Assembly: GCA_965612735.1 (NCBI GenBank)
Contig: CBFDSV010000004.1
Location: 8,826 to 72,825, forward strand
Source: an uncultured bacterium
GTDB lineage: Bacteria; Hydrothermota; UBA3072; B12-G15
Direction of reading: 5' to 3'
Length of the DNA: 64,000 bases
Shown one piece after another: positions 1 through 56,817 of this stretch (the first letter of the stretch is position 1; each line of letters opens with the position of its first letter). The notes below the pieces were generated by a model. It was given only the letters and a program-made list of their open reading frames with translations. It was not told the origin of the DNA and searched no databases. The translations under genes and the position numbers were made by a program.

Positions 1-544
1 CATCCGGCAATCTATCCGGGTTATCATAACTTGTTTTATGTTTTGCAATGCCCTCCCGTGTCTCAAAGGTGAGGTTCAGCCCCCTGAATTTTTCATACTT
101 GTTTTCAAGATAATCAACAACCCTCAATCCCTGCATGTTGTGTTCAAACCCACCCTTGCCTTCCATTATCTCATGTAGTTTCTCCTCACCTGCATGCCCA
201 AAAGGTGTATGGCCTATGTCATGTGCAAGGCTGATTGCCTCTGCAAGGTCTTCATTCAGTCTCAATGCCCTTGCAATGGTTCTTGCCACCTGTTGCACCT
301 CAATTGTATGGGTGAGCCTTGTCCTGTAATAATCACCTTCATGATTAACAAACACCTGGGTTTTGTATTCCAGCCTTCTGAATGCGGTTGAATGAATAAT
401 TCTATCCCTGTCCCTCTGAAACTCTGTCCTGAAATGTGGTGGGTCTTCTGGATGCTTTCTTCCCCTGGTATCACTGCTCTTCATACCATAGGGAGCAAGT
501 GTCTCCCTCTCTATGTCCTCAAGCATCCTTCTATAATCCATCAT
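1..544 (-). CDS. dgt: Deoxyguanosinetriphosphate triphosphohydrolase (dGTPase, HD family), 5' part; runs off window start
   Basis: Not in ORF track. Manual translation [20 protein letters not shown]...[27 protein letters not shown]...[11 protein letters not shown]...[18 protein letters not shown]...FEHN carries the dGTPase signature motifs. ATG overlaps the pduL stop (ATGA). Confidence 0.93.
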
Positions 545-1359
545 CTTCTATCAATAATAACCCCCTTTGAAAGCCCCAATTCAAGGGCAAGGGGTGTAAT
601 TATAGTTCCCTTAACAAGTATTATCTTCAATCCCTTCTCCTCCGCCTCCCTCACATCAGCCTCTGTCACAAGCCTCCTGACCACCTCCCTTTTTTCAGGC
701 ACTTTCACCTCCCCGTTCTTCTTCAGGAGGTAGCAAAGGTCTCCTGTTTTTACCCCTGCTGAATTTGCCTCATCAAAGTCAATATGAAAGTCAAGCCTGT
801 AATTCTCGCTGACCCTTATAAGCACCTCATCAAAGATAAGTTTCCTTTCATCCCCACAAACAACCCTCACAATCTCTCCATCAACAACCTTATACTCCTC
901 TGCATCCTCAGGGGTCATGTGTATATGCCTCTTTGCAATGATAACCCCTTCTAAAATGGTTACAGAACCTGCAGGACCAACAATGGTTATACCTGGAGTA
1001 TTATCAAGGTCACCAGAATCCCTGATTGGTGGATTCAATCCAAGTTTCCTTGCATCTGTGAAGGAAATTTCAACCTGGGTTCTGCTCCTCACAGGCCCCA
1101 GTATCCTCACATTTTCAATTACACCACGAGGACCAACCAGTGTAACCCTTTCCTTTGCCGCATACTGGCCTGGTTGTGTTAAAGGCTTATCCTCTGTTAA
1201 CTGGTAATCCTTACCAAATGTTACATCAAGGTCTTCTCTGGAGATATGGAGATGCCTTCCAGAAACACCTATGGGAATGGGTCTTGATGAGGGCATCAGC
1301 CCTACAAGTTCCTGTTCAATAATCTTCTTTACAACCTCAACTATCCTGCTGTCCTTCAA
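541..1359 (-). CDS. pduL: PduL-type phosphate acyltransferase (BMC phosphotransacylase) with N-terminal encapsulation-like helix and C-terminal extension
   Basis: [46 protein letters not shown] motifs; N-terminal [13 protein letters not shown] amphipathic helix; TTG start. Confidence 0.92.
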
Positions 1360-24348: not shown

Positions 24349-24509
24349 TAGATAAGGAACTCTTGAAAATTCTTGCGTGTCCCAAATGCAAGGGTGACCT
24401 TAAGTATGATGAGAAAAATGACAGACTTATATGTGAGAAGTGTAAACTCGCATATCCTATTAAGGATGGCATCCCTGTTATGCTGATTGAAGAGGCAGAA
24501 AAAATATGA
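24345..24509 (+). CDS. Trm112/YcaR-family small zinc-binding protein (54 aa)
   Basis: Missed by ORF track. [19 protein letters not shown]...[24 protein letters not shown]; ATGA overlaps at both ends. Confidence 0.92.
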
Positions 24510-35130: not shown

Positions 35131-35796
35131 TTAATATATATGCAATTTTTCAGGTGGCAAGAAGGAAATTATAAGCAGGATTATACCTATACTGAAAATC
35201 AGCAGGTTAAACCCACCACCAGCGTAAGAACTGAACCCATGAATTCCTGATGTTAAGAGTATCTTAACAGGGATGAATATGAAGGAAAGCAACAGGATAA
35301 ATACAGAGAGAAGAAAGAGGTAAAGTTGAAGACTTGAAAATGTGAGCCCTTTATAAAGGTAGAATATCGCTCCAATGATGAAGATGGAAGAGACCATAAC
35401 CGGTGCATATACTGGTGCAATCCATGGAATGGGTATGAGGAAAAGAATATCATACTCCACCAGACCTGAGGGCCAGTTTATCAGTAACTTCAGAAAGAGA
35501 TAATAGGTAATATCCCATATACCAAAGAGAAGTATGAAGATAAAGGGAACCTCTCTCAATTTTCTGGAGATGGCAAAACTTGCACCTGATAAAAACACTA
35601 TGGTGGCTATCTCTCTGTAAACCTCTGTTCTGTATATGTGAGGACTCATGGGTTTTAATGGAAAAAGGGAATGAATTCCTGGATAGAATAGTTCTCTCAG
35701 GTAAACAACACATACCGCCTCTATAAACCCAAAGGCAATGCCTGTAAAGAGTATGGAGAGAAAAACACGCGGGAGTTCATCCCTTTTCATATTCAA
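35131..35796 (-). CDS. Hypothetical integral membrane protein (~6 TM)
   Basis: EAVCVVYLR, REIAT, WDITYY, DILFLIPIPW; hydrophobic throughout; start TTG 35796 or ATG 35790. Confidence 0.7.
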   Translation of the reverse strand: MNMKRDELPRVFLSILFTGIAFGFIEAVCVVYLRELFYPGIHSLFPLKPMSPHIYRTEVYREIATIVFLSGASFAISRKLREVPFIFILLFGIWDITYYLFLKLLINWPSGLVEYDILFLIPIPWIAPVYAPVMVSSIFIIGAIFYLYKGLTFSSLQLYLFLLSVFILLLSFIFIPVKILLTSGIHGFSSYAGGGFNLLIFSIGIILLIISFLPPEKLHIY

Positions 35797-40420: not shown

Positions 40421-40441
40421 AACCACTCCTTTTTTTAATAA

Positions 40442-41648: not shown

Positions 41649-42272
41649 ATGAGAACTTTTTATATAGCAGGTGTCCTGATACTCGTACTCTTATCTGGAT
41701 GTGAATCTCAGGAAGGATTGTTAATTCATGCAGTCTTTGAATACTGTGATGGGAATGGATACTTTTTTGGGTATTTTCTTGATGACTGGGGAAGAAACAT
41801 CACTGGTGATGTCCAGATAACAATAAATGACTCAAGGAGTTTCACACCAGTGGATACATCAAGATACTATTTAAGTGAAGTTTATCCTGGTGCACAGTTC
41901 AAGGTGAAGTTCTCAAATTCCGATTACCCAGATGTGGAAACAACTGTTAGAATACCCGATGGCTTCTCACTTGTAAAATTTGACGGTGTGATAAATTCTG
42001 GTGAAAAGGACACGATTGTCTGGGAAACATCAGGAGAACTTCCCCAGTACTGGGAGATATTTATTCAAAACAGGGAGAGTGGATTCACATGGTACAGGTA
42101 TTATAATTCTGAAGATACAATGGCAATAATAGAGGATAATATATTCAACTTCTCTGGAACATATCAGATTATAATTGAGGCATTGAACTTTTCTGACATT
42201 GATAAGGCATCTTCCCAGTCAACAATTGTGGGGGTCTATTCAATAGAACGAAATTACACGGTTAATCGCTGA
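41649..42272 (+). CDS. Hypothetical lipoprotein
   Basis: MRTFYIAGVLILVLLSGC lipobox signal. Confidence 0.75.
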   Translation: MRTFYIAGVLILVLLSGCESQEGLLIHAVFEYCDGNGYFFGYFLDDWGRNITGDVQITINDSRSFTPVDTSRYYLSEVYPGAQFKVKFSNSDYPDVETTVRIPDGFSLVKFDGVINSGEKDTIVWETSGELPQYWEIFIQNRESGFTWYRYYNSEDTMAIIEDNIFNFSGTYQIIIEALNFSDIDKASSQSTIVGVYSIERNYTVNR

Positions 42273-44037: not shown

Positions 44038-45113
44038 AGTTTACCCTCTTCCCTCATTACGATTAATAAAAACCATGCTCCGATAAAAACAGCACTCACC
44101 ATAAAAAGTACGAGATCAAAATAAAAGATGTATGGGTTCCTTGTAAGTAGAAGAACAAAATCTGTAATCCATGCAATGAGTGAAAATCCAAGACCACATA
44201 AAAGCAACCAGTAGCCCTGTATCTTGAGCATAATCTTCCATTTTTTTGTAATATATATGATAAGTAAAAGTATCAGGATTACCCTGAAATAGAGGTTCAA
44301 TTTCTCTGCCGTAAAGGCATTCAGAATCTTTGGCCTTTCTGCACCTGAAAAATATTTATCAATCAACCTGTAATAAATAGACTCTTTATCCTCCTTCATG
44401 CGCTTCAGATCTTCATCTATATCATTTATTATCTCCTTTCTTTTGAAATTCTTTGGAAAGGCAAATTTTACAGGTGTGAGATTGAAAACTATTGATGTCC
44501 TCTCAACCCTGTATTTATCCTCCATCAACTGGCCAAAGATTCTGTTAACCACACCTGCATCCGCATTACCATTTGAGATTGCATCAAACACCTCCATATA
44601 GTTGCTACACTCAACATAGTCACAATGGACACCAAGTTGTTTAAGGGTGTTTTTTATGTAAACCCCATGAATACTTCTTCTCCATATAGCAAGTCTTTTA
44701 CCTTCAAGGTCATAGAATGACTGAATGTTTTCACCAGGCCTTTTGTATATCAATGCCCAGTTGTAAAACACAGGTTCCCTGTTGAACAGATAGAGGGATT
44801 CTCTCTTGATAGATGGAGCAAGGTCAGGAAGAATATCAATATCTCCATTTTTAAGGGCTTCAAGGCAGGAATCAAAGGGCATATGTACATATTCAATCCT
44901 CCATTCCCTGTTTCTTGCAATGTATTCAATTAATTCAGGCCAGAAACCTGTAACTTTACCATCTTCTGTGAATAAAAACTTTGGGGGATTATCATACACA
45001 CCCACCTTTAAGATGCCCTTTTCACTCCCTTTGAGAAGGGGGGTAATTGTAAGGATGCTCAAAATCATTAGCAATGCAGGATTCATTCCCTTGATAATTG
45101 AACCTCTGTTCAT
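44034..45113 (-). CDS. Family 3 (amino-acid type) solute-binding domain protein with C-terminal TM helices
   Basis: LKVGVYDNPP, GFWPELI, LKNGDID, DLEGKR, GNADAGV; 3 C-terminal TM; start 45113 set by promoter. Confidence 0.8.
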   Translation of the reverse strand: MNRGSIIKGMNPALLMILSILTITPLLKGSEKGILKVGVYDNPPKFLFTEDGKVTGFWPELIEYIARNREWRIEYVHMPFDSCLEALKNGDIDILPDLAPSIKRESLYLFNREPVFYNWALIYKRPGENIQSFYDLEGKRLAIWRRSIHGVYIKNTLKQLGVHCDYVECSNYMEVFDAISNGNADAGVVNRIFGQLMEDKYRVERTSIVFNLTPVKFAFPKNFKRKEIINDIDEDLKRMKEDKESIYYRLIDKYFSGAERPKILNAFTAEKLNLYFRVILILLLIIYITKKWKIMLKIQGYWLLLCGLGFSLIAWITDFVLLLTRNPYIFYFDLVLFMVSAVFIGAWFLLIVMREEGKL

Positions 45114-45119
45114 GATTTT

Positions 45120-45148
45120 ATTATAATAAAAACCCTGTGAAGTGTCAA
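45120..45148 (-). promoter_or_regulatory. Consensus sigma70 promoter for the SBP/kinase pair (leaderless)
   Basis: Perfect TTGACA-17-TATAAT-6 nt-ATG(45113). Confidence 0.75.
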
Positions 45149-45179
45149 TGAACCCGCAGTGATTTATCAAAACATATAC

Positions 45180-45208
45180 TTGACATCAAAGAATTTATAG
45201 GTTAAGTT
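45180..45208 (+). promoter_or_regulatory. Putative promoter for the chemosensory operon (leaderless)
   Basis: TTGACA-17-TAAGTT-6 nt-ATG(45215). Confidence 0.55.
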
Positions 45209-45214
45209 TTACAT

Positions 45215-48200
45215 ATGGAAATGACCGGAGAAAAAACCTTGAAGGAGATAGAACTCCACCTTCAGGAGATAATGAGAACTATTGAAGATATTTCCTCTTC
45301 AACAGAGGTGATATACAATACAAATCTGAAATTTTCTGGAGAGATTGAGGAAATTAACAAGATCCTTGAAAACATGTTTGCAAAAATCCAGTTGTTTGTT
45401 GAGGCTGCAGGAACCATCGTTGATAGGGTGAGCAGTAGCAGAATAACACTGGAAAAGACAACTTCCACACTTGAAAAAATAGTTTCATACTATAAAGCCT
45501 TGCTTTCTTCATCTGAAAAGGCCCTGAAAGGATTTGAGGAACTTGAGACAATGGGCACAAGGATTTTTGAATTACTTGAGAGGCTTGAATCAATCAACAA
45601 AACAAGTCTTTCCACAGCAAGAAATGCTGAGATTAAGGCCTACCATGCAGGTGAAGGAGGAAAAGGGTTTGAGATTGTTGCAAGGGAACTGGGCGAGTTC
45701 ACAAAGAAATCAATCGCCCTTGTTGAAGATATTATGGAAACAATAAAAACACTCAAGGAAGAATCAATTCTGGTAAGGGAACACTTCAAGAAGTTTGAAG
45801 AACCCATACAGAAACTTGAGAAAGGGGTGGCTTCCCTTAACGATGGAATTGAGTATATTAAGGAGAGTTTCAAGAGTATTGAGGAGTACTCAAAACTTGT
45901 TGGTGAGGAGGGGGAAAAGCAGGACAGAATGAGGGCAGAACTTCAGAGGTTCACAGGTGAATTATCCACACTTTCACAGAAACTTCTTCTCAACAGTAGC
46001 AGGGCTAATTTTATAACTGGACAGAAGATTACAATGGGTGAGATTCTTTCATTCCTGTTTGAACAACTGAGAAATACCTCTGGTAATGAAACCCTTGAGG
46101 GGATAGCAAAGAAGAAGTTTGTTGCACATTTAGTCATTCTTTCATCCCTTATTGATATTATAATCACAGAACTCAGTTCAATTGATGTGAGTAAAATGAG
46201 GCAAAGTTTGAAGTTAAAAGATATTGACAGATTGAAGGAAATCATAGTCAGGCAGGAAAATCTTTCAAAGGAGATAGCATCATATGCAGACGAGGCCATA
46301 GGTGCAGCAAAACAATTGGGTGAAAATCTTGAAAAGATGGAGGAGATGAATAAATCCCTATTGGAAAAAATTGAAGAGATTGATAAAAGCCTACAGAGGG
46401 TGATAGAAGGCTTTAACCAACTTAAAAAACAGGGGAGGAATACTGTTTCTGCAACAGAGAATTTGAGGATTCTCTCTCTCTATGCAAAACTGGAGGCAGT
46501 CAGGGCAGAGGATGAAAACCTCCTGGTAATTGTTGAACAGATGGCTGAACTTTCATCCCAGTTTAAATCTGCCTCAAGAGAAATAGAAGACTTTGTTAAA
46601 GGCATCAAGGAAAGCATATTCTCCACCAACGAGGGTATATCTGAAATGGGTGCATATGTTGGGGAGACCGGGAAAAACTTACTTCAATCAGAGCAATTGC
46701 TTTCAGAGGCTGAAGAAGGTATATCCTACATAACAAGTATATCAAATGAACTAATTGACACAATAAACCAGCAAAAGGAAATAACCGACAGTTTCCTTGG
46801 AACAATCACAAGGATTTCATCTGAAATGGAGAGCAATATCAGGATCTATTCTGACCTTCAATCTGGACTCAGAGAGGAAAAAGGAGAGGTTGGGGCATTG
46901 ACCTCTCTTCTGCCTTTTAGAGAATTCCACATCCCTGAAAAAACATTCACACTTTACCTCAACTCGGATGGAGACCCTATTAATCTGGACCCTGCATATA
47001 TAGGGGATGCAACCTCCAACTTTTTTGTCAACCAACTTTACAGGGGTCTATTTGAATTTGGTTTCTCTGCACGGGTTTATGCTACCCTTCCAGAATTCGT
47101 AAAGATATCCGAGAATGGACGGAGAATAAGCATAAGATTAAAGAGGGGGATAAAGGCACACAACGGTTCTCTAATAACTGCTGAGGATGTTGTATTCAGT
47201 TTTAAGAGGGTGATGAACTCACCAAATGCCGTCTTCTTTGAGGCTGTGGATGATATTAAAGTTATTGATAACTTCACATTTGAAATTTCATTGAAGTATC
47301 CATACATTCCCCTGTTCTCAAACCTTGCCACCATAGCCGGCTCCATCATACCGCAGGATGCAGGAAACCTTGACCTTCACCCGATTGGTATTGGCCCTTA
47401 CAGATTTGTTGAATGGCAAAAAGGGAAGGAGTTCAGATTGGAAAGGTTTTCTGAATATACAGGTGGTTCTGGGTATGCTGATGAAATAGTGATAAAAATT
47501 ATACCTGATAATGATGAGGTTATTGAACGATTTAAGGCAGGGGAACTGGACATAGTTTCCCTTGGACTTTCTTCCATACCAAAACTTGAAAAAGACCCTG
47601 AGTTAAAAGCACGAATGATAAGGGTTAACAGTCTTGACATTCAATATTTTGGGTTCTGCTTTAACAAAATAGATGAAACCCCTTTCAAAGACGTCAGGGT
47701 GAGAAGGGCAATGTCCTACATGATTGATAGAGAAAAATATCTTGAAATACTGTACATGGGGCATGGTATTCCTGCCAAGGGGCTTTTCCCGCCCGGGCTT
47801 GACACCTATAATCCATCCCTCAGGGGATACGAATACAATCCTGAAAAGGCACGGGAGCTTTTAAGGGAAGCAGGTTATCCAGATGGACTTCCTGATAAAT
47901 ACTATCTTGATATCAGTAGTTCAAAGGTGAATATTAGAAGGGCGGAGGTTCTGGCTGACCAGTTCAAACAGTTCGGTATAAATCTTGAAATAAGAACAAG
48001 ACCATGGGGTGAATTTCTTGACTTTGTCCACAGGGGAGAAGCAATCATGTTCCTACTTGGATGGAATACTGATAATGGGGATCCAGACAACTTTCTTTTC
48101 CCTCTTTTCCACTCAAAAAGTATCGGTGAGGGTGGAAATTCTACCTATTATTCTAACCCTGAAGTTGACAGACTGATTGAACTTGGCATGCAGGAATTAA

Positions 48201-48379
48201 ATCCCCAGAGAAGGATTGAAATATACAGGGAAGCAGAGAGAAAAATCCTTGAAGATGCACCCATGATTTTTCTGAGCCATAAGTATGACATCTATCTTGT
48301 TCAGGATGACATAATGGGATTCAAGCCCAATCCAATATCCCATGGGACGCATTACGAACATGTCTACAAGGAGTTATAA
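45215..48379 (+). CDS. Soluble chemoreceptor-like protein: two degenerate MCP coiled-coil hairpins fused to a C-terminal family 5 (DppA/OppA) solute-binding domain
   Basis: Hairpin tips ARNAEIKAYHAGEGGKGFEIVA and ILSLYAKLEAVRAED; SBP5 motifs INLDPA, ITAEDVVFSF, PIGIGPY, DVRVRRA, YNPEKARELL, YSNPEVD; no TM or signal peptide. Confidence 0.8.
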   Translation: MEMTGEKTLKEIELHLQEIMRTIEDISSSTEVIYNTNLKFSGEIEEINKILENMFAKIQLFVEAAGTIVDRVSSSRITLEKTTSTLEKIVSYYKALLSSSEKALKGFEELETMGTRIFELLERLESINKTSLSTARNAEIKAYHAGEGGKGFEIVARELGEFTKKSIALVEDIMETIKTLKEESILVREHFKKFEEPIQKLEKGVASLNDGIEYIKESFKSIEEYSKLVGEEGEKQDRMRAELQRFTGELSTLSQKLLLNSSRANFITGQKITMGEILSFLFEQLRNTSGNETLEGIAKKKFVAHLVILSSLIDIIITELSSIDVSKMRQSLKLKDIDRLKEIIVRQENLSKEIASYADEAIGAAKQLGENLEKMEEMNKSLLEKIEEIDKSLQRVIEGFNQLKKQGRNTVSATENLRILSLYAKLEAVRAEDENLLVIVEQMAELSSQFKSASREIEDFVKGIKESIFSTNEGISEMGAYVGETGKNLLQSEQLLSEAEEGISYITSISNELIDTINQQKEITDSFLGTITRISSEMESNIRIYSDLQSGLREEKGEVGALTSLLPFREFHIPEKTFTLYLNSDGDPINLDPAYIGDATSNFFVNQLYRGLFEFGFSARVYATLPEFVKISENGRRISIRLKRGIKAHNGSLITAEDVVFSFKRVMNSPNAVFFEAVDDIKVIDNFTFEISLKYPYIPLFSNLATIAGSIIPQDAGNLDLHPIGIGPYRFVEWQKGKEFRLERFSEYTGGSGYADEIVIKIIPDNDEVIERFKAGELDIVSLGLSSIPKLEKDPELKARMIRVNSLDIQYFGFCFNKIDETPFKDVRVRRAMSYMIDREKYLEILYMGHGIPAKGLFPPGLDTYNPSLRGYEYNPEKARELLREAGYPDGLPDKYYLDISSSKVNIRRAEVLADQFKQFGINLEIRTRPWGEFLDFVHRGEAIMFLLGWNTDNGDPDNFLFPLFHSKSIGEGGNSTYYSNPEVDRLIELGMQELNPQRRIEIYREAERKILEDAPMIFLSHKYDIYLVQDDIMGFKPNPISHGTHYEHVYKEL

Positions 48380-48799
48380 ATGGAAGTATTGACATTTTAT
48401 CTGGAGGAAGAGCCATACGGAATTGATGTGAGGAATATTGTTGAAATAGTGGAGAAACTTGAGCCTGTGAAGGTTCCCCTATCACCCCCCTATGTTGAAG
48501 GTATAGCAAATTTAAGGGGAGAGATTGTGCCCATTGTGAATCTAAAAAAAAGGTTCGGTGCAAAAAAATCAGGAGGACAATCCATAGTTGTTATAATACT
48601 TCATAAAGGTGAGAAGGTTGGTATAATGATTGACAGAATTTCAGGGATTCAAAATGTTCAGGAAACAGAACTGAAGAAACCAACCAGACGGTTGAAGAAA
48701 CTCATCCCCCCTGAATTCCTTGCAGGTGTCTTTTCGGTTGGTAAAACCAGGTATCTTTTGCTTGACATTGATAAAATCTTAGAAGAAAAAGGAGGATAA
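48380..48799 (+). CDS. cheW: Chemotaxis coupling protein CheW
   Basis: TFYL...YGID, VP..PPYVEGIANLRGEIVPIVNL, LLDIDKIL. Confidence 0.93.
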   Translation: MEVLTFYLEEEPYGIDVRNIVEIVEKLEPVKVPLSPPYVEGIANLRGEIVPIVNLKKRFGAKKSGGQSIVVIILHKGEKVGIMIDRISGIQNVQETELKKPTRRLKKLIPPEFLAGVFSVGKTRYLLLDIDKILEEKGG

Positions 48800-49165
48800 A
48801 TGGGCGTAAGGGTTTTAGTCGTTGATGACGCTATTTTTATGAGAAAGATGCTTGGGGATATACTCAGAAAAGAGGGATACGAAATCGTGGCAGAGGCTGA
48901 AAATGGCAAGGAGGCTGTTGAAAAGTACAAGGAATTAAAACCAGACCTTGTGACAATGGACATCATCATGCCTGATATGAGCGGGATTGATGCTGTGAAG
49001 GAGATTATCAAAATTGACCCCGATGCAAAGATAATAATGGTAAGCGCAATGGGACACCAGACCCTTGTAATTGAGGCAATACAGGCAGGTGCAAAGGACT
49101 ATGTGGTTAAACCTTTCCAGCCTTCAAGGGTTCTTGAAGCCGTACAGAGGGTGCTGAAACTGTAA
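48800..49165 (+). CDS. cheY: Chemotaxis response regulator CheY
   Basis: VLVVDDAIFMR, DLVTMDIIMP, MVSAMG, VKPF; single domain within che cluster. Confidence 0.93.
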   Translation: MGVRVLVVDDAIFMRKMLGDILRKEGYEIVAEAENGKEAVEKYKELKPDLVTMDIIMPDMSGIDAVKEIIKIDPDAKIIMVSAMGHQTLVIEAIQAGAKDYVVKPFQPSRVLEAVQRVLKL

Positions 49166-49170
49166 AAGAT

Positions 49171-50922
49171 ATGATTGATAATTCTGTTGGTGAAGAGTAC
49201 AAAAAACTGTTTAAGAGCGAGGTTATATCTTACCTTGACAACCTCAACAACCTTGTGGTGGAACTTGAAAAACACCCTGAGAGGAAGGATGTTATTGATG
49301 AAATCTTCAGGATTTTCCACACGATCAAAAGTATGGCAGGAACAATGGGTTATGAAGAGATGTCACAACTCTGCCACAGAATTGAAGACCTTCTGTTTCC
49401 TGTAAGAAACGGAGAAGAAAAGGTATCCCAGAATCTCATTGATGAAATCCTGAATGGAATAGACTTTATTGAAAATTTCGTCACCGGTGAGAAGAAAACC
49501 ATTAACAGGCTAAAAATAACGTTGAATAAAGAGACACCTCTTCCTGGCGCAAGATTCTTCACAATACTCAATAACCTGAAATCCATTACCGATGTGGAAC
49601 TTCTTGAACCAGGTATTGAGGAACTTACAGGTGAAGAGGATATCTTCCAGTTTGTGATTTCCACAGGCAACCCAGAGAAGATTCAGGAAGAACTAAGAAA
49701 ATACTCAGAGGTTGAAAAGGTTGAATTGCTTGCTGAAGAGGAAAAGGAACACGTTGTAAAGGATGAGTCAAAAAAACCAAGAGAGTTGAGGGTTGATATT
49801 GAGGACCTTGATGCCCTCCAGAATATTCTTGCCGAACTTGTCATCACAAGGGAAAGGCTGAAGGAACTCATTAAAGAGAGGGGTGATGCTGATTTGAATT
49901 CTGCAATGGAATTCCACTCAAGGGCAATCTCAGACCTTCAAAACATAGTTATGAAGATAAGGATGGTTCCACTTTCACACATATTTGACAGATTTCCCAG
50001 GTATGTGAGAGACCTGGCAAAAAACCTGGGCAAAAAAATCAACCTGAAAATAATCGGGAGTGATATTGAACTTGACAGGTCACTCATTGAAAGTATTTCA
50101 GACCCATTGCATCACCTTGTGAGAAATGCAGTTGACCATGGGATTGAACCCCCTGAAGAGAGAAAAAGGATGGGGAAAAATGAAGAAGGAACAATTGAGA
50201 TTAAGGCATCAAGGGAGAAGGGTTTCATAAAGATTACAATCTCGGATGATGGGAGTGGCATAGATACCGAGAACATAAAAATTATGGCTTTAAAGAAGGG
50301 ATTGATAAAGGAAGAGCAGGCAGGAAGGCTGAGTGAAAGGGAACTTATTTCCTTCCTGTTTCTACCTGGATTCAGTACAAGAGAAGAGGTGAGTGACCTT
50401 TCAGGCAGGGGTGTTGGGCTTGATGTGGTTAGGGAAGCCATGAGGAAGATTGGAGGAAATGTGGAGCTCCATTCTGTTCAGGGAAAGGGTACAACAATAA
50501 ACCTTTACATCCCCCTCACCATGGCAATAATCAAGGCTTACATTATAAGGGTAGAAAATGAATTCTATGCAATACCTTTAACCTTTTTGATAGAGACCAC
50601 ATCCGTTGATAAAAACAGAGTATCATTCATCCATGGAAAACCACTTGTCATCTTGAGAAACGAGGTGATGCCCCTCTACAATCTGAGAAAGATATTGAGT
50701 CTTAAAGACAGAAATGGAGATGGAACAGATATGCCTACCCTGGTGTTGAATGTTGAGGGCAAAAGATTTATATTATTGGCAGATGAACTGATAACATCTG
50801 GAGATATTGTGGTTAAACATCTTCCTGTGATAATAAGAGATATCAGACAATATACGGGTGTAACCATAATGGGCGATGGATATCCCTGTCTTATACTTGA
50901 TGTGCCAAATCTTGTTCAATAG
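49171..50922 (+). CDS. cheA: Chemotaxis histidine kinase CheA
   Basis: Hpt IFRIFHTIKSMAG, P2-like region, RMVP, HLVRNAVDHGIE, SDDGSG, SGRGVGLDVV, C-terminal CheW domain. Confidence 0.96.
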   Translation: MIDNSVGEEYKKLFKSEVISYLDNLNNLVVELEKHPERKDVIDEIFRIFHTIKSMAGTMGYEEMSQLCHRIEDLLFPVRNGEEKVSQNLIDEILNGIDFIENFVTGEKKTINRLKITLNKETPLPGARFFTILNNLKSITDVELLEPGIEELTGEEDIFQFVISTGNPEKIQEELRKYSEVEKVELLAEEEKEHVVKDESKKPRELRVDIEDLDALQNILAELVITRERLKELIKERGDADLNSAMEFHSRAISDLQNIVMKIRMVPLSHIFDRFPRYVRDLAKNLGKKINLKIIGSDIELDRSLIESISDPLHHLVRNAVDHGIEPPEERKRMGKNEEGTIEIKASREKGFIKITISDDGSGIDTENIKIMALKKGLIKEEQAGRLSERELISFLFLPGFSTREEVSDLSGRGVGLDVVREAMRKIGGNVELHSVQGKGTTINLYIPLTMAIIKAYIIRVENEFYAIPLTFLIETTSVDKNRVSFIHGKPLVILRNEVMPLYNLRKILSLKDRNGDGTDMPTLVLNVEGKRFILLADELITSGDIVVKHLPVIIRDIRQYTGVTIMGDGYPCLILDVPNLVQ

Positions 50923-50933
50923 GAGGAACCTAT

Positions 50934-51557
50934 ATGAGGTTAAAGGACTTAAACAAATTACATCTGGATGGAATTAAAGAGGCAGCAAATATAGGTAGTG
51001 GACATGCAGCCACTGCCCTTTCCCAGATGATGGGGAAGAGTATCATGGTGAGTGTTCCAGAGGTTAAAGTTTTGAAACTGGAGGAAGTTCCGTATATATT
51101 TGGTGAAAAAACACCTGTTGTTGCAGCAGTGCTCACCAACTTTTTCGGGGACATAACAGGTAGAAACCTCCTTGTTTTCCCTGAGGATAAAGCACGCCTC
51201 CTTGTGGACATCCTTCTGGCAAAAAATCCAGGTGAAACTGTTGGTTTTGGAGAGATGGAAATATCATCCCTCAAGGAGATAGCAAACATAGTTTCAAGTT
51301 CCTACCTGAGTGCTATCTCTGAATTTTTAGGGATAATGGTGCTGCCCTCTGTTCCATCCTTCACACTTGATGACCTTGCAGCAGTTCTCACAAGCGTTTA
51401 TCTACAGTTTACTGACGAGGATGATAGGGAGTATGCATTCTGTGTTGAGACAAGTTTTTACTTCACCGAAGAGGCTGTTAAACTGGAGGGATACCTTCTT
51501 ATGATACCTGACAAAATGGGACTTGAAAGAATGTTAAAAAGCCTTGGACTTCTGTAA
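50934..51557 (+). CDS. cheC: CheY-P phosphatase CheC
   Basis: DGIKEAANIGSGHAATALS and SSLKEIANI (two ExxN motifs). Confidence 0.92.
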   Translation: MRLKDLNKLHLDGIKEAANIGSGHAATALSQMMGKSIMVSVPEVKVLKLEEVPYIFGEKTPVVAAVLTNFFGDITGRNLLVFPEDKARLLVDILLAKNPGETVGFGEMEISSLKEIANIVSSSYLSAISEFLGIMVLPSVPSFTLDDLAAVLTSVYLQFTDEDDREYAFCVETSFYFTEEAVKLEGYLLMIPDKMGLERMLKSLGLL

Positions 51558-54196
51558 TGGGAATAAGTGAACAGGAAGCAAGGATTTTAAAACTTTTTGC
51601 AAGCAAGATTGACCCCAATGATGCGGGGGCCCACAACAATCTTGCTGTTGTGTACTTCAACAAAGGCCTGTATGAAGAGGCAATTAAGGAGTTAAAAAAG
51701 GCGCTTGAAATAGACCCACACTTCACACTTGCCAGAAACAATCTGGAGTTCATTTATAAAAAGATTGGTTATTATGATAGGACAATTCAGGAACTTCAAG
51801 AAAAAATCAATGAAAACCCTGATGACCTTGAGTCCCTGAAACAACTTGCAGAGGCATACAAAAACACAGGGCAGTACTTCAAGGCAATCAGAATATACAA
51901 ACAGTACCTTAATAAAAACCCTGAGGATGTTGAGGCAATTGAAAACTATGGTGTTTCCCTGAAGGCAATTGGATTTTATGACGATGCAGCAGATGTTTTC
52001 AGAAGATTATCAAAGATAATTCCTGATTCAAGCCATATAAGAAGACACCTTGGTGAGGTTTATTATAATCTGGGGCTCCTTGACAGGGCAATATCTGAAT
52101 TCAAGGAAGCCATTAAGATAGACCCCAATGATGCTCAGGCACATTTCCTTCTTGCCTTTGTATATGGTGAAAAGGGCGATTTCCAGAGGGCAAAAGAGGA
52201 GACAAAGATAGCAATAAAACTGAACCCCACCCTTGCAAAGACAAAGCCAAATCTTGGGCTTGATTTTTACTCACAGGAAGGATACTCAGGATTTGTAAGT
52301 GTTGAGGATACGGAAAGCAACACCTTCCTCACACATTATTCGCTTGGTATTGCCTTCAGAAATAAGGGGCTCTTCAATGAGGCATTAAAGGAGTTTCAGC
52401 AGGCATTAAAGGTTGACCCTGAAAATGTTATAGTGAGGAAACAACTGGGAGAGATTTATCTCCTGAAAAATGAAAATGAGAAGGCCATTGCAGAGTATGT
52501 TGAGGCAATGAGACAGGATACATCTTCGCCCAAGATTCCAAACGACATTGGTGTAGCATGCCACAGGCTAGGGAAACTTGAGGAGGCACTCTCATGGTAC
52601 AACAAGGCACTTGAGATTGACCCTTCTTATGTTGTTTCATACAACAACCTTGGAATTGTTCACTATCATCTTGGTGATAAAGAAAAATCCATTGAATTTT
52701 TCAAAAAGGCCATTGAGATAGAACCAGATTATCACGACGCATATCTTAATCTCGGACTTGTATATATGCAGGAAGGGGATTTTGACAGGGCAATTGAACT
52801 CTTCAGGAAGGTTATTGAACTCAGAGAAGACTATCCCCTTGCCTATAACTATCTCGGGCTTGTGTATCTTAACAATGGAATGTTTGATGAGGCAATTTAC
52901 AACTTTAAAGAGGCAATTAAGAGAGACCCACAGTTTGCAGAGGCCTACTACAACCTTGGTTTTGCCCTATCCCGTATTGGCAAGTATGACGAGGCACTAA
53001 AGGCAACAAGGAAGGCCCTGGAGATTAACCCATACTATACAAGCAACAGGTTCAAACTTGGAATTGATGTATATTCTGAAAAACTTGAGGTTCTCATATC
53101 AAGGGAACTAACACAGGAAATGGAGATGGAATTTGTTACAGCTGAACCTGAAAGGGACGAGGAGAGCATCTTTGAAGACATATTTGTTGAACCTGAGGGC
53201 CCATCCCTTGATATAGAGACAACCCTTAAAGAAGCACAGAATTTGTTTACACAGGGGCTTTACGACCTTGCCATTGAAAAACTACAGGAGATTGTACGTA
53301 TAGAACCTCAGAATACAGAGGCCTCACTTCTGCTTGCGAGAATTTACAGGATAAAGAAACTCTACGGTGAGGCTTCAGATATACTGAAGAGAATTCAGAG
53401 TGAAAGCAAGGAGGCAGTGAAGGAACTCGCAAGGGTCTTCATTGATACAGGGGATTTCTTCAATGCAAAAATGAAGATTGAATCCCTTCTTGAGAAAGAC
53501 CCTGGTGATGTGGAGAGTTATAAACTCCTCGCATATCTGGCTGAAAAGGAAGGGGATTATGATTCTGCTGTTTACACACTGGAAAAACTGCTCAAGATTG
53601 AAAGGAGTGAAGATATACTGAAAGAACTTGGAAGGTTGTTGATAGAGAAGAAAGAATTTGATAAGGCAGCAGACTATCTAAAAGAGGCATTGGAACTGGG
53701 AAAGGATGTTCATATCTACTATCTGCTCGGCAAAATCATGTATCTGAAAGAGAATTACATTGACAGTAAGTCATATCTTGAAGAGGCAATAAAAATTTCA
53801 CCAGACAATTCTGATGTAAATAAACTTCTTGCAAAGGTTCAACTGAACCTCGGAGAGTTTGAAAGTGCTTTGAAAACAGTGGAGCATCTTAAAGAAAAGG
53901 TCTCTGGAGACAGTGAAATTTATTTGATAGAGGGAAACATCTATACAAGGATTGGTGATAACAGGGCAGCAATTAACTCCTTTGAAAAGGCAATAAGCCT
54001 TGATGAAAACAATATCACTGCTTATAAACTCCTTGCCTCACTCCTTACAAAAACTGGAGAACTTGAGAAATCTATAAAGGTCTGGCAGGAGATACAGAGA
54101 AGATGGCCTGAATCATCTGTTGCAGAAGAGGCAAAACAGGCCATTGAAGCAGCAAAGAAACTTATTGAACTCACTGGAGGATTGGGATGGCAATAG
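51557..54196 (+). CDS. Large multi-TPR protein
   Basis: Many TPR units (AHNNLAVVY, SYNNLGIVH, AYLNLG, AYYNLG); no signal peptide. Confidence 0.9.
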   Translation: MGISEQEARILKLFASKIDPNDAGAHNNLAVVYFNKGLYEEAIKELKKALEIDPHFTLARNNLEFIYKKIGYYDRTIQELQEKINENPDDLESLKQLAEAYKNTGQYFKAIRIYKQYLNKNPEDVEAIENYGVSLKAIGFYDDAADVFRRLSKIIPDSSHIRRHLGEVYYNLGLLDRAISEFKEAIKIDPNDAQAHFLLAFVYGEKGDFQRAKEETKIAIKLNPTLAKTKPNLGLDFYSQEGYSGFVSVEDTESNTFLTHYSLGIAFRNKGLFNEALKEFQQALKVDPENVIVRKQLGEIYLLKNENEKAIAEYVEAMRQDTSSPKIPNDIGVACHRLGKLEEALSWYNKALEIDPSYVVSYNNLGIVHYHLGDKEKSIEFFKKAIEIEPDYHDAYLNLGLVYMQEGDFDRAIELFRKVIELREDYPLAYNYLGLVYLNNGMFDEAIYNFKEAIKRDPQFAEAYYNLGFALSRIGKYDEALKATRKALEINPYYTSNRFKLGIDVYSEKLEVLISRELTQEMEMEFVTAEPERDEESIFEDIFVEPEGPSLDIETTLKEAQNLFTQGLYDLAIEKLQEIVRIEPQNTEASLLLARIYRIKKLYGEASDILKRIQSESKEAVKELARVFIDTGDFFNAKMKIESLLEKDPGDVESYKLLAYLAEKEGDYDSAVYTLEKLLKIERSEDILKELGRLLIEKKEFDKAADYLKEALELGKDVHIYYLLGKIMYLKENYIDSKSYLEEAIKISPDNSDVNKLLAKVQLNLGEFESALKTVEHLKEKVSGDSEIYLIEGNIYTRIGDNRAAINSFEKAISLDENNITAYKLLASLLTKTGELEKSIKVWQEIQRRWPESSVAEEAKQAIEAAKKLIELTGGLGWQ

Positions 54197-55167
54197 AAGG
54201 ACCAATCAAGGAACTCGGGCTTTTTGAACTATTCCAGTTAATATCCTTTGCAAAAAAAAGTGGAAAATTAACAATTAAAAGAACAGGGGAAGATACACAC
54301 ACTTTGTTCTTCAGGGATGGTCTCTTAATTCACATGGAACTTGAGGATAGATTGGGTGATGAATTAAAGAAAAGGGGACTTCTTGGTGAAGATGAATCCA
54401 TTAAAGATGCCATAGATTCAGGTAAATTGAAGCCCAACCAAATCTACCCACTCTTTGCCACAATGGTTGAAAATGCAGTTTTTACCCTTCTCAAACTCAA
54501 GGATGGGTATTTTACATTCACAGAGGAAGATGTTTCGTCACCATGGGGTATGGAACTCAATTTGAGGATTGAAAACCTCCTTATGGAGGGAGCAAGAAGG
54601 ATTGATGAGATAACAAAAATGAGTTCAGTGCTTGAACCTGACAAATGCATCCCTGTAATCTCTGAAGAGATAGAAAAAATGAATTACATAAACCTCTCTC
54701 CAGAGGAATGGGAGATCCTATCCCTGATAGATGGAGAAAAGACAATCAGTGAGATATGCAGGGAGAGAGGTGATGAATTCAAGACAATAAAGGTTTTATA
54801 CGGACTTTTTATGGCAGGGGTTATAAAAAAGTCAGAAGTCGCTTCAGAAATAACCCCTCCCACTGCAGAAGAGGAAGGTCTTGCAAGAGGAATTGAACTT
54901 GCAGATAATCTGTGGAAGGAAGCAAATTATCGGGAAGGCATTGAACTCCTGCTCAGGTTGAGAGAGAGATTTCCGGATGAACCTGTGATTGATTATAATC
55001 TTGGTTTTTTTTACCTCAGAATGGGCAAATGGGGAGAGGCACTCACAGAATTTTCCCGTTTCATCTCCAGAACAAAGGATGGAAATGCAAAAGAAGAAGT
55101 AAGACAATTGCTGGATAAACTGAAGGAAATCTTTGAGCATGAAAAGAAGGAGGGATACATTGGATAA
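54187..55167 (+). CDS. DUF4388 (PATAN-like) domain protein with C-terminal TPR
   Basis: MAIEGPIKELGLFELFQLI...KKSGKLTI...LFFRDG; GYFTF; LLMEGARRIDE; LSPEEWEILSLIDG. Confidence 0.85.
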   Translation: MAIEGPIKELGLFELFQLISFAKKSGKLTIKRTGEDTHTLFFRDGLLIHMELEDRLGDELKKRGLLGEDESIKDAIDSGKLKPNQIYPLFATMVENAVFTLLKLKDGYFTFTEEDVSSPWGMELNLRIENLLMEGARRIDEITKMSSVLEPDKCIPVISEEIEKMNYINLSPEEWEILSLIDGEKTISEICRERGDEFKTIKVLYGLFMAGVIKKSEVASEITPPTAEEEGLARGIELADNLWKEANYREGIELLLRLRERFPDEPVIDYNLGFFYLRMGKWGEALTEFSRFISRTKDGNAKEEVRQLLDKLKEIFEHEKKEGYIG

Positions 55168-55999
55168 TGATGGACTGAAAAGCGCCCCTGGCTCCATTGA
55201 TGTTATGATTTCACTTGCTGACCTCTACATCCAGAACAACCTGCTTGACCAGGCGGTTGAACTTCTCTCAGGTGTGTATAGTGAAAACCCTGATGAACCA
55301 CGGATAATTGAGAAATTGATAGAACTTTATATCCTTAAAGGGAATGAAACAAAGGCAAAAATTCTTCTTCAGCAAGGCTTGTCTGTTGATAAAAATTACG
55401 AGGGCTTTCAAAAATATATGAAATTAATAGAAGAGGAAAAAACAGCCGATAGAATAAGAGAGGTGATTGCAGAGGCAGTGGAAGCAACCGAAGAAGTGAT
55501 ACCGCTTGAGGAACTTGAAGAGGCCAAAACCCCTGCAGAAAAAACAGCAGAGGAACAGGTAGAGAAGGTTGAAGAGGTTGAAAAACCTCTGATAGAGGTA
55601 CCTGAAAAAGAGATTGAACAAAAGGTGGAAGAAGAGGCTGGCGTTGACCCAATAAAAAGGGTGCTCTCAGCTTTATATGAGATAGATGAAGTGCTTGGAA
55701 TGATTTTATCAGATGAAACAGGTCTTTTAATTGCAGAAAACGTGAGGGTGACAATAGATACAGAAAGCACAGGTGCACTTCTCTCCTCAATCTATACAGA
55801 AACTGTTTCCACACTGGAGAGGTTAAATCTGGGTGGATTTGATTATATCATATTTGAATTCCCAAGGGGAGTTGTTCTAATCCTCGCCTCTCCACCAATT
55901 ATTCTCACAGTCATGTGCAAAAAGGACGTTCAGGAAGGGCTTCTGCTGTTGAAGGCAAAAAGTGTTATGGATGAACTGAAAAATATGCTGGGGGTATAG
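55160..55999 (+). CDS. TPR + acidic linker + roadblock/LC7 domain protein
   Basis: SLADLY TPR; Glu-rich linker; VLGMILSDETGLLIAE...GALLSSI...LNLG roadblock; TTG 55160 has GGAGG SD (track start 55133). Confidence 0.8.
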   Translation: MDNDGLKSAPGSIDVMISLADLYIQNNLLDQAVELLSGVYSENPDEPRIIEKLIELYILKGNETKAKILLQQGLSVDKNYEGFQKYMKLIEEEKTADRIREVIAEAVEATEEVIPLEELEEAKTPAEKTAEEQVEKVEEVEKPLIEVPEKEIEQKVEEEAGVDPIKRVLSALYEIDEVLGMILSDETGLLIAENVRVTIDTESTGALLSSIYTETVSTLERLNLGGFDYIIFEFPRGVVLILASPPIILTVMCKKDVQEGLLLLKAKSVMDELKNMLGV

Positions 56000-56000
56000 G

Positions 56001-56339
56001 ATGAAAAAGGAACTTGAACCTTTAATCCAGCTGGACGAAATTTATGGTGTGATTGCCGCATCAACTGATGGTATAATCATTGAATCAGCAACAAGAAAGG
56101 AAATAGACGAGGAGACAGCTGCTGCACTTACTGCAAGAATCTCAAAAGAGGTTGCTGACAAAACAGGGATAAAAAAGAATGTTCTCTCTATTATCAAGGG
56201 TGAAAACGGATATCTTATTTTTACAATAAAAAAGGATTTTGTCCTTGGCATCATTGGTGGAAATGATGTAAATCTAGGAGAGGTTAAACAGGTTTTAAGA
56301 AAGGTTGCTGACAGGATACAGGGCATATTAAGTGGCTGA
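56001..56339 (+). CDS. Roadblock/LC7 domain protein
   Basis: IYGVIAASTDGIIIES...ETAAALTA...IKGENG...VNLG. Confidence 0.85.
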   Translation: MKKELEPLIQLDEIYGVIAASTDGIIIESATRKEIDEETAAALTARISKEVADKTGIKKNVLSIIKGENGYLIFTIKKDFVLGIIGGNDVNLGEVKQVLRKVADRIQGILSG

Positions 56340-56817
56340 GGAAATCCTTTTAGGGGTTGAAACATCCCGAAAAATAGAGGATATACTGAATGGGTTTTTA
56401 AGGGCTTCAGGTGCAAGATGCGTTTTCCTTGTTTCCAGAAGTGGACAACTCATAAGTGAACTGGGATTCACAAGGGACCTGAAGGTTCTCTCAATCGTGG
56501 CACTTCTGTCTGGTATCTTTTCTGCAACGGAAAAGATAGCAAGGCTTATAAAAGAGGAACTTTCAGAACTACTACTTGAAGGGAAGGAGTGGAATGTATA
56601 TTTTAAATACATTGGTAAATCATATGTATTCATAACAATGTACAAGGAAAACTCCATCCTTGGTGTGATAAAGGTTGAATCAAAGATTGCGTGTAAAAAA
56701 CTTCTTGAAATCCTTACAGAGGAAGTACCAATACCAAGGGTTGAAAAATTTGAGGAAGATACAGAAGGAATAACAAAATTAATATCAAAATTCTTTGAGG
56801 AAACATGGGAAGACTGA
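56332..56817 (+). CDS. mglB: MglB-like roadblock protein
   Basis: ARCVFLVSRSGQLIS...VALLSGIFSATEKIARLIKE...LEG matches the pattern of myxobacterial MglB, with an acidic C-terminal helix; GTG start. Confidence 0.75.
   Translation: MAEEILLGVETSRKIEDILNGFLRASGARCVFLVSRSGQLISELGFTRDLKVLSIVALLSGIFSATEKIARLIKEELSELLLEGKEWNVYFKYIGKSYVFITMYKENSILGVIKVESKIACKKLLEILTEEVPIPRVEKFEEDTEGITKLISKFFEETWED

Follow-up and report, generated by a model that had tools for sequence, protein, structure and literature searches.

A conserved soluble chemoreceptor with two tandem MCP hairpins and a C-terminal SBP5 domain, predicted to fold as a single-chain pseudo-dimer

We analysed a 64,000-nucleotide stretch of DNA from an uncultured bacterium (contig CBFDSV010000004.1 of assembly GCA_965612735.1; the window), in which the gene at 45215..48379 on the forward strand encodes a soluble chemoreceptor. 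Two tandem hairpins of the methyl-accepting chemotaxis protein (MCP) type come first in this protein, and a DppA-like sensor domain of the solute-binding protein family 5 (SBP5) comes last. The gene is a single uninterrupted open reading frame (ORF) of 1054 amino acids (P0001) that begins with ATG, and just 3 further codons are open upstream of it. With AlphaFold2 (AF2) predictions, profile matches and family alignments, its parts were delimited as follows:

45215..48379, + strand: whole gene, a soluble double-hairpin MCP fused to SBP5, 1054 amino acids, P0001 (ORF and translation; Pfam MCPsignal twice plus SBP_bac_5)
45215..46078, + strand: hairpin 1, residues 1-288, with N-arm 5-144, turn 145 and C-arm 146-288 (AF2 helices; MCPsignal 47.5 bits)
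45611..45694, + strand: tip 1, residues 133-160, family consensus aRNaeIKayhaG..G.GFevvA (family alignment, tip mapping)
46079..46102, + strand: indel-rich junction loop between the hairpins, residues 289-296 (non-helical at 289-296 in AF2; junction lengths)
46103..46909, + strand: hairpin 2, residues 297-565, with N-arm 297-431 (kinks at 322-333), turn 432-433 and C-arm 434-565 (AF2; hhalign; MCPsignal 23.3 bits)
46457..46552, + strand: tip 2, residues 415-446, family consensus lSlYa..Eaar.g.....L.viv.....Ls, lacking G-x-G-F (family alignment, tip mapping)
46910..46948, + strand: short linker from the hairpin 2 C-arm to SBP5, residues 566-578 (AF2 secondary structure; junction lengths)
46949..48376, + strand: DppA/HbpA-like SBP_bac_5 domain, residues 579-1054, without a signal peptide of its own and with D953 as the equivalent of DppA D408 (Pfam 283-286 bits; sequence matches in the PDB; Foldseek TMt 0.82-0.85)

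When the entire protein was scanned with Pfam, MCPsignal (PF00015) scored 52.9 bits, split over two stretches (cut-off 34.6), and SBP_bac_5 (PF00496) scored 283 bits at residues 629-970. Since the latter match covers profile positions 10-366 of 368, the SBP_bac_5 domain is complete. Residues 1-279 scanned alone gave 47.5 bits for MCPsignal, with the match at residues 103-231, and residues 581-1054 alone gave 286 bits for SBP_bac_5. The first tip motif, NAEIKAYHAGEGGKGFEIVA, corresponds to residues 137-156 (nucleotides 45623-45682), the second, LSLYAKLEAVRAED, to residues 420-433 (nucleotides 46472-46513), and the SBP domain starts at about residue 579 (nucleotide ~46949).

The N-terminus is hydrophilic and the protein has no signal peptide. 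Its sole hydrophobic stretch, residues 302-320 (Kyte-Doolittle 19-residue mean 2.01), is shared only with a relative of 88% identity (1.74). Peak values in the remaining 15 members are 1.10-1.48, and a membrane segment is thus not conserved. We considered residues 302-320 as a membrane segment that would export hairpin 2 and SBP5, and rejected it because 15 of the 17 members lack the stretch and because it includes Asp, Ser and Glu. Given the hydrophilic N-terminus and the lack of a signal peptide and of a conserved membrane segment, the SBP5 domain must be cytoplasmic. An earlier interpretation made from the letters only (the sequence-only reading) had proposed just this inverted arrangement: no membrane segment or signal peptide, two tip-like motifs at these sites, a complete DppA/OppA-like domain from ~46940, and a signalling module that precedes the sensor. 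The Pfam scans that it had suggested, together with the hydrophobicity profiles of the 17 members, bear it out on each of these points.

Upstream of the gene, the spacer 45180-45214 contains TTGACA, 17 bases and TAAGTT, the latter ending 6 bases before the ATG; judged by its letters, this is a candidate promoter. The close relatives P0002 and P0003 begin at the third codon of P0001. The mRNA may be leaderless, or translation may start at the next Met.

The fusion is conserved. A word-index search returned 6 proteins, five of which have 1051-1054 amino acids, carry PF00015 and PF00496 and are 39-99% identical to P0001; the sixth is an unrelated SBP5-AAA protein. Residues 1-580 were then used for an exhaustive phmmer search against 1.84 billion representative proteins, which gave 2276 matches at E<=0.001 and just 16 clusters at E<=1e-10. 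Fifteen of these clusters have 1048-1137 amino acids and match nearly all 580 residues, while the sixteenth, P0013, has just 307 amino acids (29% identity to hairpin 1; 34.0 bits for MCPsignal) and may represent a single hairpin, either truncated or complete by itself. MCPsignal, split into two stretches in 13 cases, and SBP_bac_5 at the C-terminus were found in all 14 long members that were newly scanned; for the fifteenth, P0002, the precomputed Pfam list gives PF00015 and PF00496. A precomputed label on P0005 (PF26039) was not reproduced by the Pfam rescan and was discarded. Looking up the Protein Atlas returned generic MCP clusters only. The family alignment used below (A2) holds 17 members at 24-41% identity, and a smaller one (A1) holds 6 sequences at 37-41%.

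Among 79 loci in GTDB species genomes, 17 were near full length and 2 were cut by contig ends, with the labels candidate division WOR-3 (8), Candidatus Edwardsbacteria (1), UBP2 (1) or merely 'bacterium'; the other 60 matched the SBP5 part only. The receptor family is conserved, and most of its members come from genomes of the WOR-3 type. For a survey at E<=1e-15, 201 genomes (90 genera) were sampled evenly across the window's phylum. Exactly one receptor copy was present in each of 46 genomes from 23 genera, with an open frame of 1052-1136 amino acids in 42 of the 46. Four frames were shorter (232-577 amino acids), and for three of these the match starts <200 bases from a contig end. Presence of the receptor tracks taxonomic families (3/3, 19/20, 6/6 and 12/14 genomes in some, 0 in many). 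Since the same single ORF recurs in many independent assemblies, an assembly artefact or chimeric ORF was rejected. The sequence-only reading had named such an artefact as what would overturn it and had suggested a survey of the architecture across genomes; with the architecture found in 15 clusters and 46 of the 201 genomes, the fusion that it described is real. We are highly confident of the architecture and of its conservation.

To place the fused SBP5 domains, they were compared with stand-alone relatives; the 11 nearest of these that were checked all have hydrophobic, signal- or lipobox-like N-termini. A tree built by a quick method from the 17 fused and 17 SBP-only sequences, with two long-branch rows omitted, put all fused domains on one side of a branch with an SH-aLRT support of 100. 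A more careful tree that included the genome's two other SBP5 proteins required 2 changes for the fused group: one of the two, L086_own_C15, has a very long branch (5.4 changes per site) and was placed next to P0014, P0015 and P0019. The split in the SBP5 tree is thus consistent with a single fusion event. Literature searches, which did not cover subscription journals, did not turn up any report of an MCP fused to SBP5 or of a receptor that is pseudo-dimeric in nature.

The two hairpins match each other. Aligned as profiles with hhalign, residues 1-292 and 293-578 gave a probability of 98.1% (E 9.5e-14, 242 columns) and paired residues 12-259 with 302-543, with one 4-residue gap in the N-arm and one 2-residue gap at the tip. 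This profile-profile match shows an internal duplication with equal arms. Both hairpins are hydrophobic at 43 of the 242 aligned positions, with a spacing of 3/4/7. The most conserved columns of A2 are the two tips (R136, N137, I140, K141, G146, G149, G151, F152 and A156 in tip 1; S421, Y423, E427, L436 and L446 in tip 2), and both tip motifs are far beyond chance. The turn of tip 2 is 2 residues shorter than in distant family members; the deletion occurs in the closest relatives (5 of the 17 rows of A2), and P0009 lacks one residue.

The genome's other three MCPs carry the canonical tip LLALNAxIEAARAGExGxGFAVVA (also written LLALNAxIEAARxGExGKGF). The entire motif is found in neither tip of the receptor, which reads ARNAEIKAYHAGExGKGFEVVA in tip 1 and LSLYAKLEAxRAxxxxLxVIV in tip 2; that both lie far from the consensus had been anticipated. 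According to Table 1 of a 2026 review (PMC13098124), the Tsr residues within 4 Å of the CheA P5 domain and CheW are Q374, I377, L380, N381, V384 and R388, plus F373, L378, A383, E385, A387 and R404. By our own alignment, six of these positions map onto the tips as follows:

Tsr I377: S133 in tip 1, I419 in tip 2
Tsr L380: R136 in tip 1, L422 in tip 2
Tsr N381: N137 in tip 1, Y423 in tip 2
Tsr V384: I140 in tip 1, L426 in tip 2
Tsr E385: K141 in tip 1, E427 in tip 2
Tsr R388: H144 in tip 1, R430 in tip 2

That is, tip 2 retains most of the N-helix contact face (the equivalents of I377, L380, V384, E385 and R388) and has lost G-x-G-F. Tip 1 retains the C-helix G-x-G-F-x-V-V-A and the N381 equivalent, and its N-helix displays a new invariant R..IK..H face within the family-specific R-N-A-E-I-K-A-Y-H-A-G. 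The tips have thus diverged in complementary ways and appear to divide the labour between them. Tip 1 naturally carries a residue of the E385K/R type, which in Tsr locks the kinase ON (PMC6681711); we draw this as an analogy only.

Canonical methylation sites are missing as well. What we take to be the methylation consensus, [ASTG]2-x2-[EQ]2-x2-[ASTG]2, occurs in none of the 17 family members. The same pattern occurs at 7 sites in P0023, a double-tip protein with canonical tips, and at 6, 4 and 0 sites in the genome's other three MCPs.

How the two hairpins are arranged was then approached by structure prediction. AF2 modelled the whole protein from the 17-sequence alignment with a mean pLDDT of 86.0 and a pTM of 0.67, with helices at residues 2-144, 146-287, 292-321, 325-330, 335-431 and 434-565, followed by the SBP fold. 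Residues 1-578 alone (14 sequences) gave a pLDDT of 85.2 and a pTM of 0.62. Foldseek matched a single hairpin to MCP cytoplasmic domains (2ch7_A with TMt 0.77; 3zx6_B with TMt 0.73, root-mean-square deviation (rmsd) 3.0) at a probability of 1.00 and weak E-values of 1e-2. The sequence-only reading, which would have fallen had the N-terminal half shown no MCP fold, was right about two MCP hairpins: the split MCPsignal match, the hhalign duplication and the predicted helices all agree on them.

Compared with known structures by VIA-align, the N-terminal model matched the 199-residue maquette 6z0c_A (Z 19.2, rmsd 2.3, 199 of 199 residues aligned, model 95..485), the single-chain ROP 1yo7_B (Z 13.2, rmsd 1.7, 115 aligned, model 117..460) and Ccsp, 6q6b_B (Z 12.0, rmsd 2.3, model 116..457). 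The opposite end of the bundle matched the PMEI 1x8z_A (Z 13.7, rmsd 1.7, 116 aligned, model 7..567). All are compact single-chain four-helix bundles, and the matched ranges of the model include both hairpins. Since such matches are possible only with four long helices lying side by side and both turns at one end, the prediction is an intrachain four-helix bundle. Engineered single-chain receptor 'dimers' have been reported to fold, interact with CheA and CheW and regulate kinase activity (bioRxiv 10.1101/2020.03.27.011866), so a natural intrachain arrangement is physically reasonable. We regard the single-chain bundle as the best-supported topology and give the model about an even chance of being right. 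Whether the hairpins form a pseudo-dimer or bridge array layers had been left as alternatives by the sequence-only reading; the former is the topology that AF2 predicts, which leaves bridging as the less likely one.

The bridging topology has a precedent in DosM (VC1403) of the Vibrio cholerae F9 system, in which two signalling domains are combined in one receptor (PMC7534058, PMC9321776). Here, the hairpins of the receptor would point in opposite directions, and two parallel chains would form a four-helix rod of ~40 nm with a tip at each end, bridging the two CheA/CheW baseplates of a cytoplasmic sandwich array and holding SBP5 at mid-plane. The DosM rod was seen by cryo-electron tomography to be integrated into both baseplates (PMC7534058). 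Like a DosM-like rod, our receptor is soluble, and its arms of 132-143 residues resemble those of the soluble double-tip protein P0023 (tips at ~196 and ~496 of 644 amino acids). However, AF2 predicts a fold-back. The hallmarks of F9 are missing: CheW is a single-domain protein, and there is no triple-CheW among the genome's 4 CheW-domain matches. Each end of a rod would need full trimer and CheA/CheW contacts, whereas the tips here have lost complementary halves and P0022 and P0023 keep both tips canonical. Moreover, all other MCPs of the genome have a hydrophobic N-terminus, which leaves no second soluble receptor to fill a sandwich array. Taken together, we consider the rod rather unlikely.

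The complementary loss fits a pairing of tip 1 with tip 2 better than it fits two homotypic ends. This would also hold for an antiparallel domain-swapped homodimer, in which the chains run head to tail, hairpin 1 packs against the partner's hairpin 2 and each end of the rod presents one tip 1 and one tip 2. Such a dimer would explain the tip divergence as well as a pseudo-dimer does and would keep a DosM-like length, but AF2 closes the bundle intramolecularly, the junction is a variable loop (16-40 amino acids across the family, over columns 283-303) rather than a continuous helix, and no direct evidence speaks for the swap. It therefore seems improbable to us.

The SBP5 domain, which is predicted to sit opposite the tips in the single-chain bundle, is closest in sequence to 5u4o (E 3.6e-68), HbpA/GbpA (3m8u) and DppA (1dpp, E 1.3e-57) among solved structures. 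The nearest NCBIfam models are DppA, GsiB and Opp4A, with scores far under the equivalog cut-offs, and SgrR is matched in part (E 2.2e-11, residues 641-768). Foldseek matched the SBP fold with TMt 0.82-0.85 (5u4o with E 4.5e-37; 1dpp_A with TMt 0.85 and rmsd 2.7). Liganded forms fit the model better than open ones, both for DppA (1dpp 2.7 versus 1dpe 6.2) and for MppA (3o9p 2.7 versus 4toz 6.0). D953 aligns to DppA D408, in G-W-T-G-D-N-G-D-P-D-N-F, and is present in 17 of 17 members; the surrounding G-W-x-x-D-x-G-D-P-D-N-F motif is kept, with W950, D953, P957 and F960 invariant at the 24-41% identity of the family. In DppA, the strictly conserved D408 forms a salt bridge with the charged terminus of the ligand (PMC3295651), and its retention makes a ligand with a free amino group plausible here. 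That the receptor senses intracellular peptides or metabolites, as the sequence-only reading had it, is a proposal. ABC permease or ATPase genes were not found among the annotated neighbours from 37790 to 63498. The SBP domain starts ~13 residues after the last helix, and closure of the clamshell could act directly on the hairpin 2 C-arm. A role of the receptor in cytoplasmic sensing is likely.

Alternatively, the receptor might be a structural or scaffolding one, as DosM presumably is, whose SBP5 serves as a protein-docking or localisation module and senses no ligand. The absence of canonical methylation sites from all 17 members would suit a scaffold, as would the poor conservation of the DppA R355 equivalent, the reuse of SBP5 in an unusual fusion elsewhere in the genome (to a TonB C-terminal domain) and the report that 98% of DosM homologues are scaffolds without a sensor domain (PMC9321776). 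Against it stand the completeness of the domain (283 bits), the conservation of the cleft motif and, in 17 of 17 members, of the Asp408 equivalent, and the AF2 model of a closed, ligand-type clamshell (rmsd 2.7 to 1dpp versus 6.2 to the open 1dpe). In our estimate a scaffold has a small chance of being the right answer.

An Asp/Glu-racemase-family gene lies directly upstream of the receptor in two distant relatives (L020:7979-8872, L021:7145-7975), a 276-amino-acid ORF at L029:1267-2097 is a candidate for a third case, L020 also has an N-acetylmuramoyl-L-alanine amidase nearby, and in the window an alanine racemase lies close upstream (40493-41590, - strand). These neighbours may hint at D-amino-acid or murein-peptide ligands.

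The receptor gene heads an operon that contains the only CheA detected in the genome. The genes that follow it are:

48380..48799, + strand: CheW, 139 amino acids, single domain, its start abutting the receptor stop codon (Pfam CheW, 104.6 bits)
48800..49165, + strand: CheY-like receiver, 121 amino acids (Pfam Response_reg, 114 bits)
49171..50922, + strand: CheA (Hpt-P2-dimerisation-HATPase-P5), the only CheA-type P5 found in the genome (Pfam; genome census of CheW domains)
50934..51557, + strand: CheC/CheX-family phosphatase, 207 amino acids (Pfam CheC 71 bits, CheX 32 bits)
51557..54196, + strand: TPR protein, 879 amino acids, in a position conserved in relatives (Pfam)
54187..55167, + strand: DUF4388 protein, 326 amino acids, in the same position at the related locus L018 (Pfam DUF4388, 85.6 bits)
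55133..56817, + strand: two Roadblock/LC7 proteins, TPR-Robl at 55133-55999 and Robl at 56332-56817, likewise in L009 and L018 (Pfam Robl_LC7)

Spacing within the operon is mostly 0-11 bases or overlap, with 333 bases before the last Roadblock gene; the adjoining CheW and CheA, which had been noted from the letters, are both in place. Pfam confirmed the same gene order in L009 and L018, and ORF sizes indicate it in L006, L010, L014 and L019. L065 has a partial order, with CheA confirmed and no CheW or CheY ORF found. At L011:11966-15761 and L013:12114-15043, the place of the che genes after the receptor is taken by genes for a coiled-coil protein of 726-729 amino acids and a TonB_C protein.

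Upstream of the receptor gene, after a spacer of 44 bases and in divergent orientation, the - strand of the window (42262-45170) encodes an SBP_bac_3/phosphonate-binding-like protein (378 amino acids) and a PAS-HisKA-HATPase-REC hybrid kinase (591 amino acids), a pair that ORF sizes also indicate in L006. The operon is flanked by a CHASE2-adenylate/guanylate cyclase (35793-37715, - strand) and a GAF-GAF-GGDEF diguanylate cyclase (61762-63498, + strand). Elsewhere in the window lie a 1213-amino-acid Peptidase_C25 (gingipain-like) protein (24506-28147, + strand) and an 878-amino-acid beta-helix protein (37790-40426, - strand), each with weak, below-cut-off matches to a type IX secretion C-terminal sorting domain. 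Both would fit a secreted-protease lifestyle.

Genome-wide (2.16 Mb, 97.6% complete), we found 4 MCP genes, one CheR, one CheB, a CheD and four CheW-domain matches, among which only the CheA of the window is a kinase; the CheW-domain ORFs besides the operon's CheW and CheA-P5 have 138 and 224 amino acids. Neither flagellin nor FlhA was found in this 97.6%-complete genome, and within the phylum sample FlhA exceeded the cut-off in 6 of the 201 genomes, none of them in a receptor-bearing family. Control of something other than flagella is therefore the most likely role of the pathway. T2SSE-family ATPases gave eight matches, seven of them above the Pfam cut-off. By association, the neighbourhood of DUF4388 (which we take to be PATAN), Roadblock proteins, a small GTPase and pilus ATPases points to pilus or gliding motility and polarity; we presume that the Roadblock proteins are comparable to MglB and the small GTPase to MglA. 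A literature search on motility in WOR-3 returned nothing usable.

Contig 6 holds a second, kinase-less chemosensory locus (L085:3527-14193, - strand) with no CheA or CheY. Its order is a small Ras/Arf-like GTPase, a DnaA-like ATPase, DUF4388-TPR, CheR, CheD, CheB, TPR, AAA_22, the 224-amino-acid CheW-domain protein, a HAMP-MCP and CheW, and a T2SSE ATPase of PilT size lies nearby (L085:16121-17215). On contig 15, a 680-amino-acid GAF-domain MCP has the canonical tip and no methylation motif (L086:5362-7404, - strand), and a 451-amino-acid SBP5 protein is encoded two genes downstream. Contig 12 encodes the unusual fusion mentioned above, a 699-amino-acid protein with SBP_bac_5 at residues 75-425 (255 bits) and a C-terminal TonB_C at 620-694 (L087:3063-5162, + strand). 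As far as examined, none of the genome's three SBP5 proteins stands in a classical Opp/Dpp operon.

Combining these results, we propose the following mechanism. The two hairpins of one chain would form a single antiparallel four-helix bundle of ~20 nm, with ~20 heptads per arm. The two tips would share one end of it, and the opposite end would carry one SBP5 domain, a DppA-like clamshell without the export signal that it once had. Tip 2 would provide the N-helix contact face for CheA/CheW, and tip 1 the C-helix motif together with its own conserved face. A small, peptide-like ligand with a free amino group might bind in the cytoplasmic SBP5 cleft, whose closure would pull the C-arm of hairpin 2 through the ~13-residue linker. 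Altered packing of the bundle at the tips could in turn alter the activity of the operon's CheA through CheW, and phosphorylated CheY might then act on machinery for polarity or for movement without flagella (type IV pili or gliding, of the PATAN/Roadblock/MglA-like kind). Adaptation would not proceed by canonical methylation of the receptor. As a whole, a natural single-chain receptor 'dimer' with non-equivalent tips, whose clamshell reads a cytoplasmic peptide-like pool and steers pilus or gliding movement in a flagella-less phylum, is a tentative proposal that we hold to be possible rather than probable.

Several points weigh against the proposed mechanism. Residues 280-580 scanned alone stayed under the MCPsignal cut-off (23.3 bits, E 6.4e-5, ~366-535). 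The topology was read from structural matches of the best of five AF2 models and not from coordinates, and it derives from one chain and shallow alignments of 14-17 sequences; monomer predictions are prone to fold-back when amphipathic hairpins are long. Core positions related by symmetry showed no sign of compensating for each other's side-chain volume (0.013 versus -0.035 to 0.10 in shifted controls), and the comparison was uninformative. We assumed the Tsr numbering in mapping the tips, although it agrees with the residue letters in the table of PMC13098124. DosM, the only experimentally characterised receptor with a double signalling domain, is an extended rod (PMC7534058). Six of the 13 related loci examined (L011, L012, L013, L020, L021 and L029) lack a following CheY/CheA cluster; at L012, CheW alone adjoins the receptor gene, and at L020 and L021 no che genes do. 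The link to pili and polarity comes from gene neighbourhood only. Concerning the ligand, DppA R355 aligns to S902, its equivalent being Ser or Asp in the clade, so that a classical dipeptide is not assured; Y357 aligns to a gap, and just 4 of the 17 members have an Arg one column before the R355 equivalent. In DppA, Arg355 presumably holds the carboxylate of the ligand.

What is known of chemoreceptor signalling comes from symmetric homodimers, in which the same tip residues serve as trimer or as CheA/CheW contacts depending on the way a subunit faces. If the proposal is true, a natural single-chain bundle with two different tips would break the rule of the symmetric homodimer for receptor units and would fix the orientation of the bundle in the trimer and the array. 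It would also separate the trimer and CheA/CheW roles genetically, and this would make it a tool to assign functions to the individual faces and to follow the spread of asymmetry through arrays. The clamshell would then report the uptake of products of secreted proteases. The family also presents a Venus-flytrap SBP5 domain that has moved to the cytoplasm to become the probable sensor of an MCP, on the last helix and not the first; compared with the HAMP-to-N-helix route, this is a different geometry of the input. Finally, a conserved chemosensory pathway in a phylum seen in metagenomes only, without flagellar genes and linked to PATAN, Roadblock and small-GTPase genes, offers an entry point to the movement and the targets of these uncultured organisms.

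Compared with known systems, the receptor belongs by domain and fold to the MCP superfamily but lacks the canonical tip and methylation features, and its last domain, which sequence and fold assign to SBP_bac_5, lacks the usual location and transporter context. The background of the sequence-only reading, namely that chemoreceptors have one conserved tip and that SBP5 domains are normally extracytoplasmic, left out two precedents: the two-domain DosM and the cytoplasmic SBP5 of SgrR.

With DosM, the receptor shares a soluble chain, two tandem MCP signalling domains and similar arm lengths. Both tips of the DosM type are canonical, as seen in P0022 and P0023, whereas those of the receptor have diverged in a complementary manner. 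The DosM class has a triple-CheW partner, CheW3 (PMC9321776), whereas the CheW of the receptor is a single-domain protein of 139 amino acids. Unlike the DosM type, the receptor also carries an SBP5 sensor, lacks methylation motifs and is predicted to fold back rather than to extend. Its similarity to P0022 and P0023 in phmmer (E ~1e-10) is no better than that to ordinary MCPs, which leaves room for an independent duplication. Like the engineered Tar/Tm14 foldons, the receptor combines two fused hairpins of one chain in a four-helix bundle, which in our case is predicted; the foldons, however, are artificial, with 71 residues per unit and identical tips (bioRxiv 10.1101/2020.03.27.011866), while the receptor would be a natural, full-length case with specialised tips.

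The sensor resembles the cluster C SBPs DppA, HbpA (GbpA) and GsiB in its full-length domain, its fold and the Asp408-equivalent motif. In contrast to them, it has neither signal peptide nor lipobox, forms the C-terminus of a cytoplasmic protein, has no adjacent ABC permease or ATPase genes and lacks equivalents of R355 and Y357 in its clade. SgrR, which we take to be a cytoplasmic transcription factor with an SBP_bac_5 sensor, likewise uses an SBP5 domain as a cytoplasmic sensor module, to which the sequence match is partial; its output is a DNA-binding domain, whereas that of the receptor is an MCP. Ligand information is also passed from an SBP5 protein to a chemoreceptor in the pairs DppA-Tap and AibA-TlpB (PMC8050422). 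There, however, the SBP works in the periplasm as a protein of its own and docks on a transmembrane receptor, whereas here it is fused and cytoplasmic.

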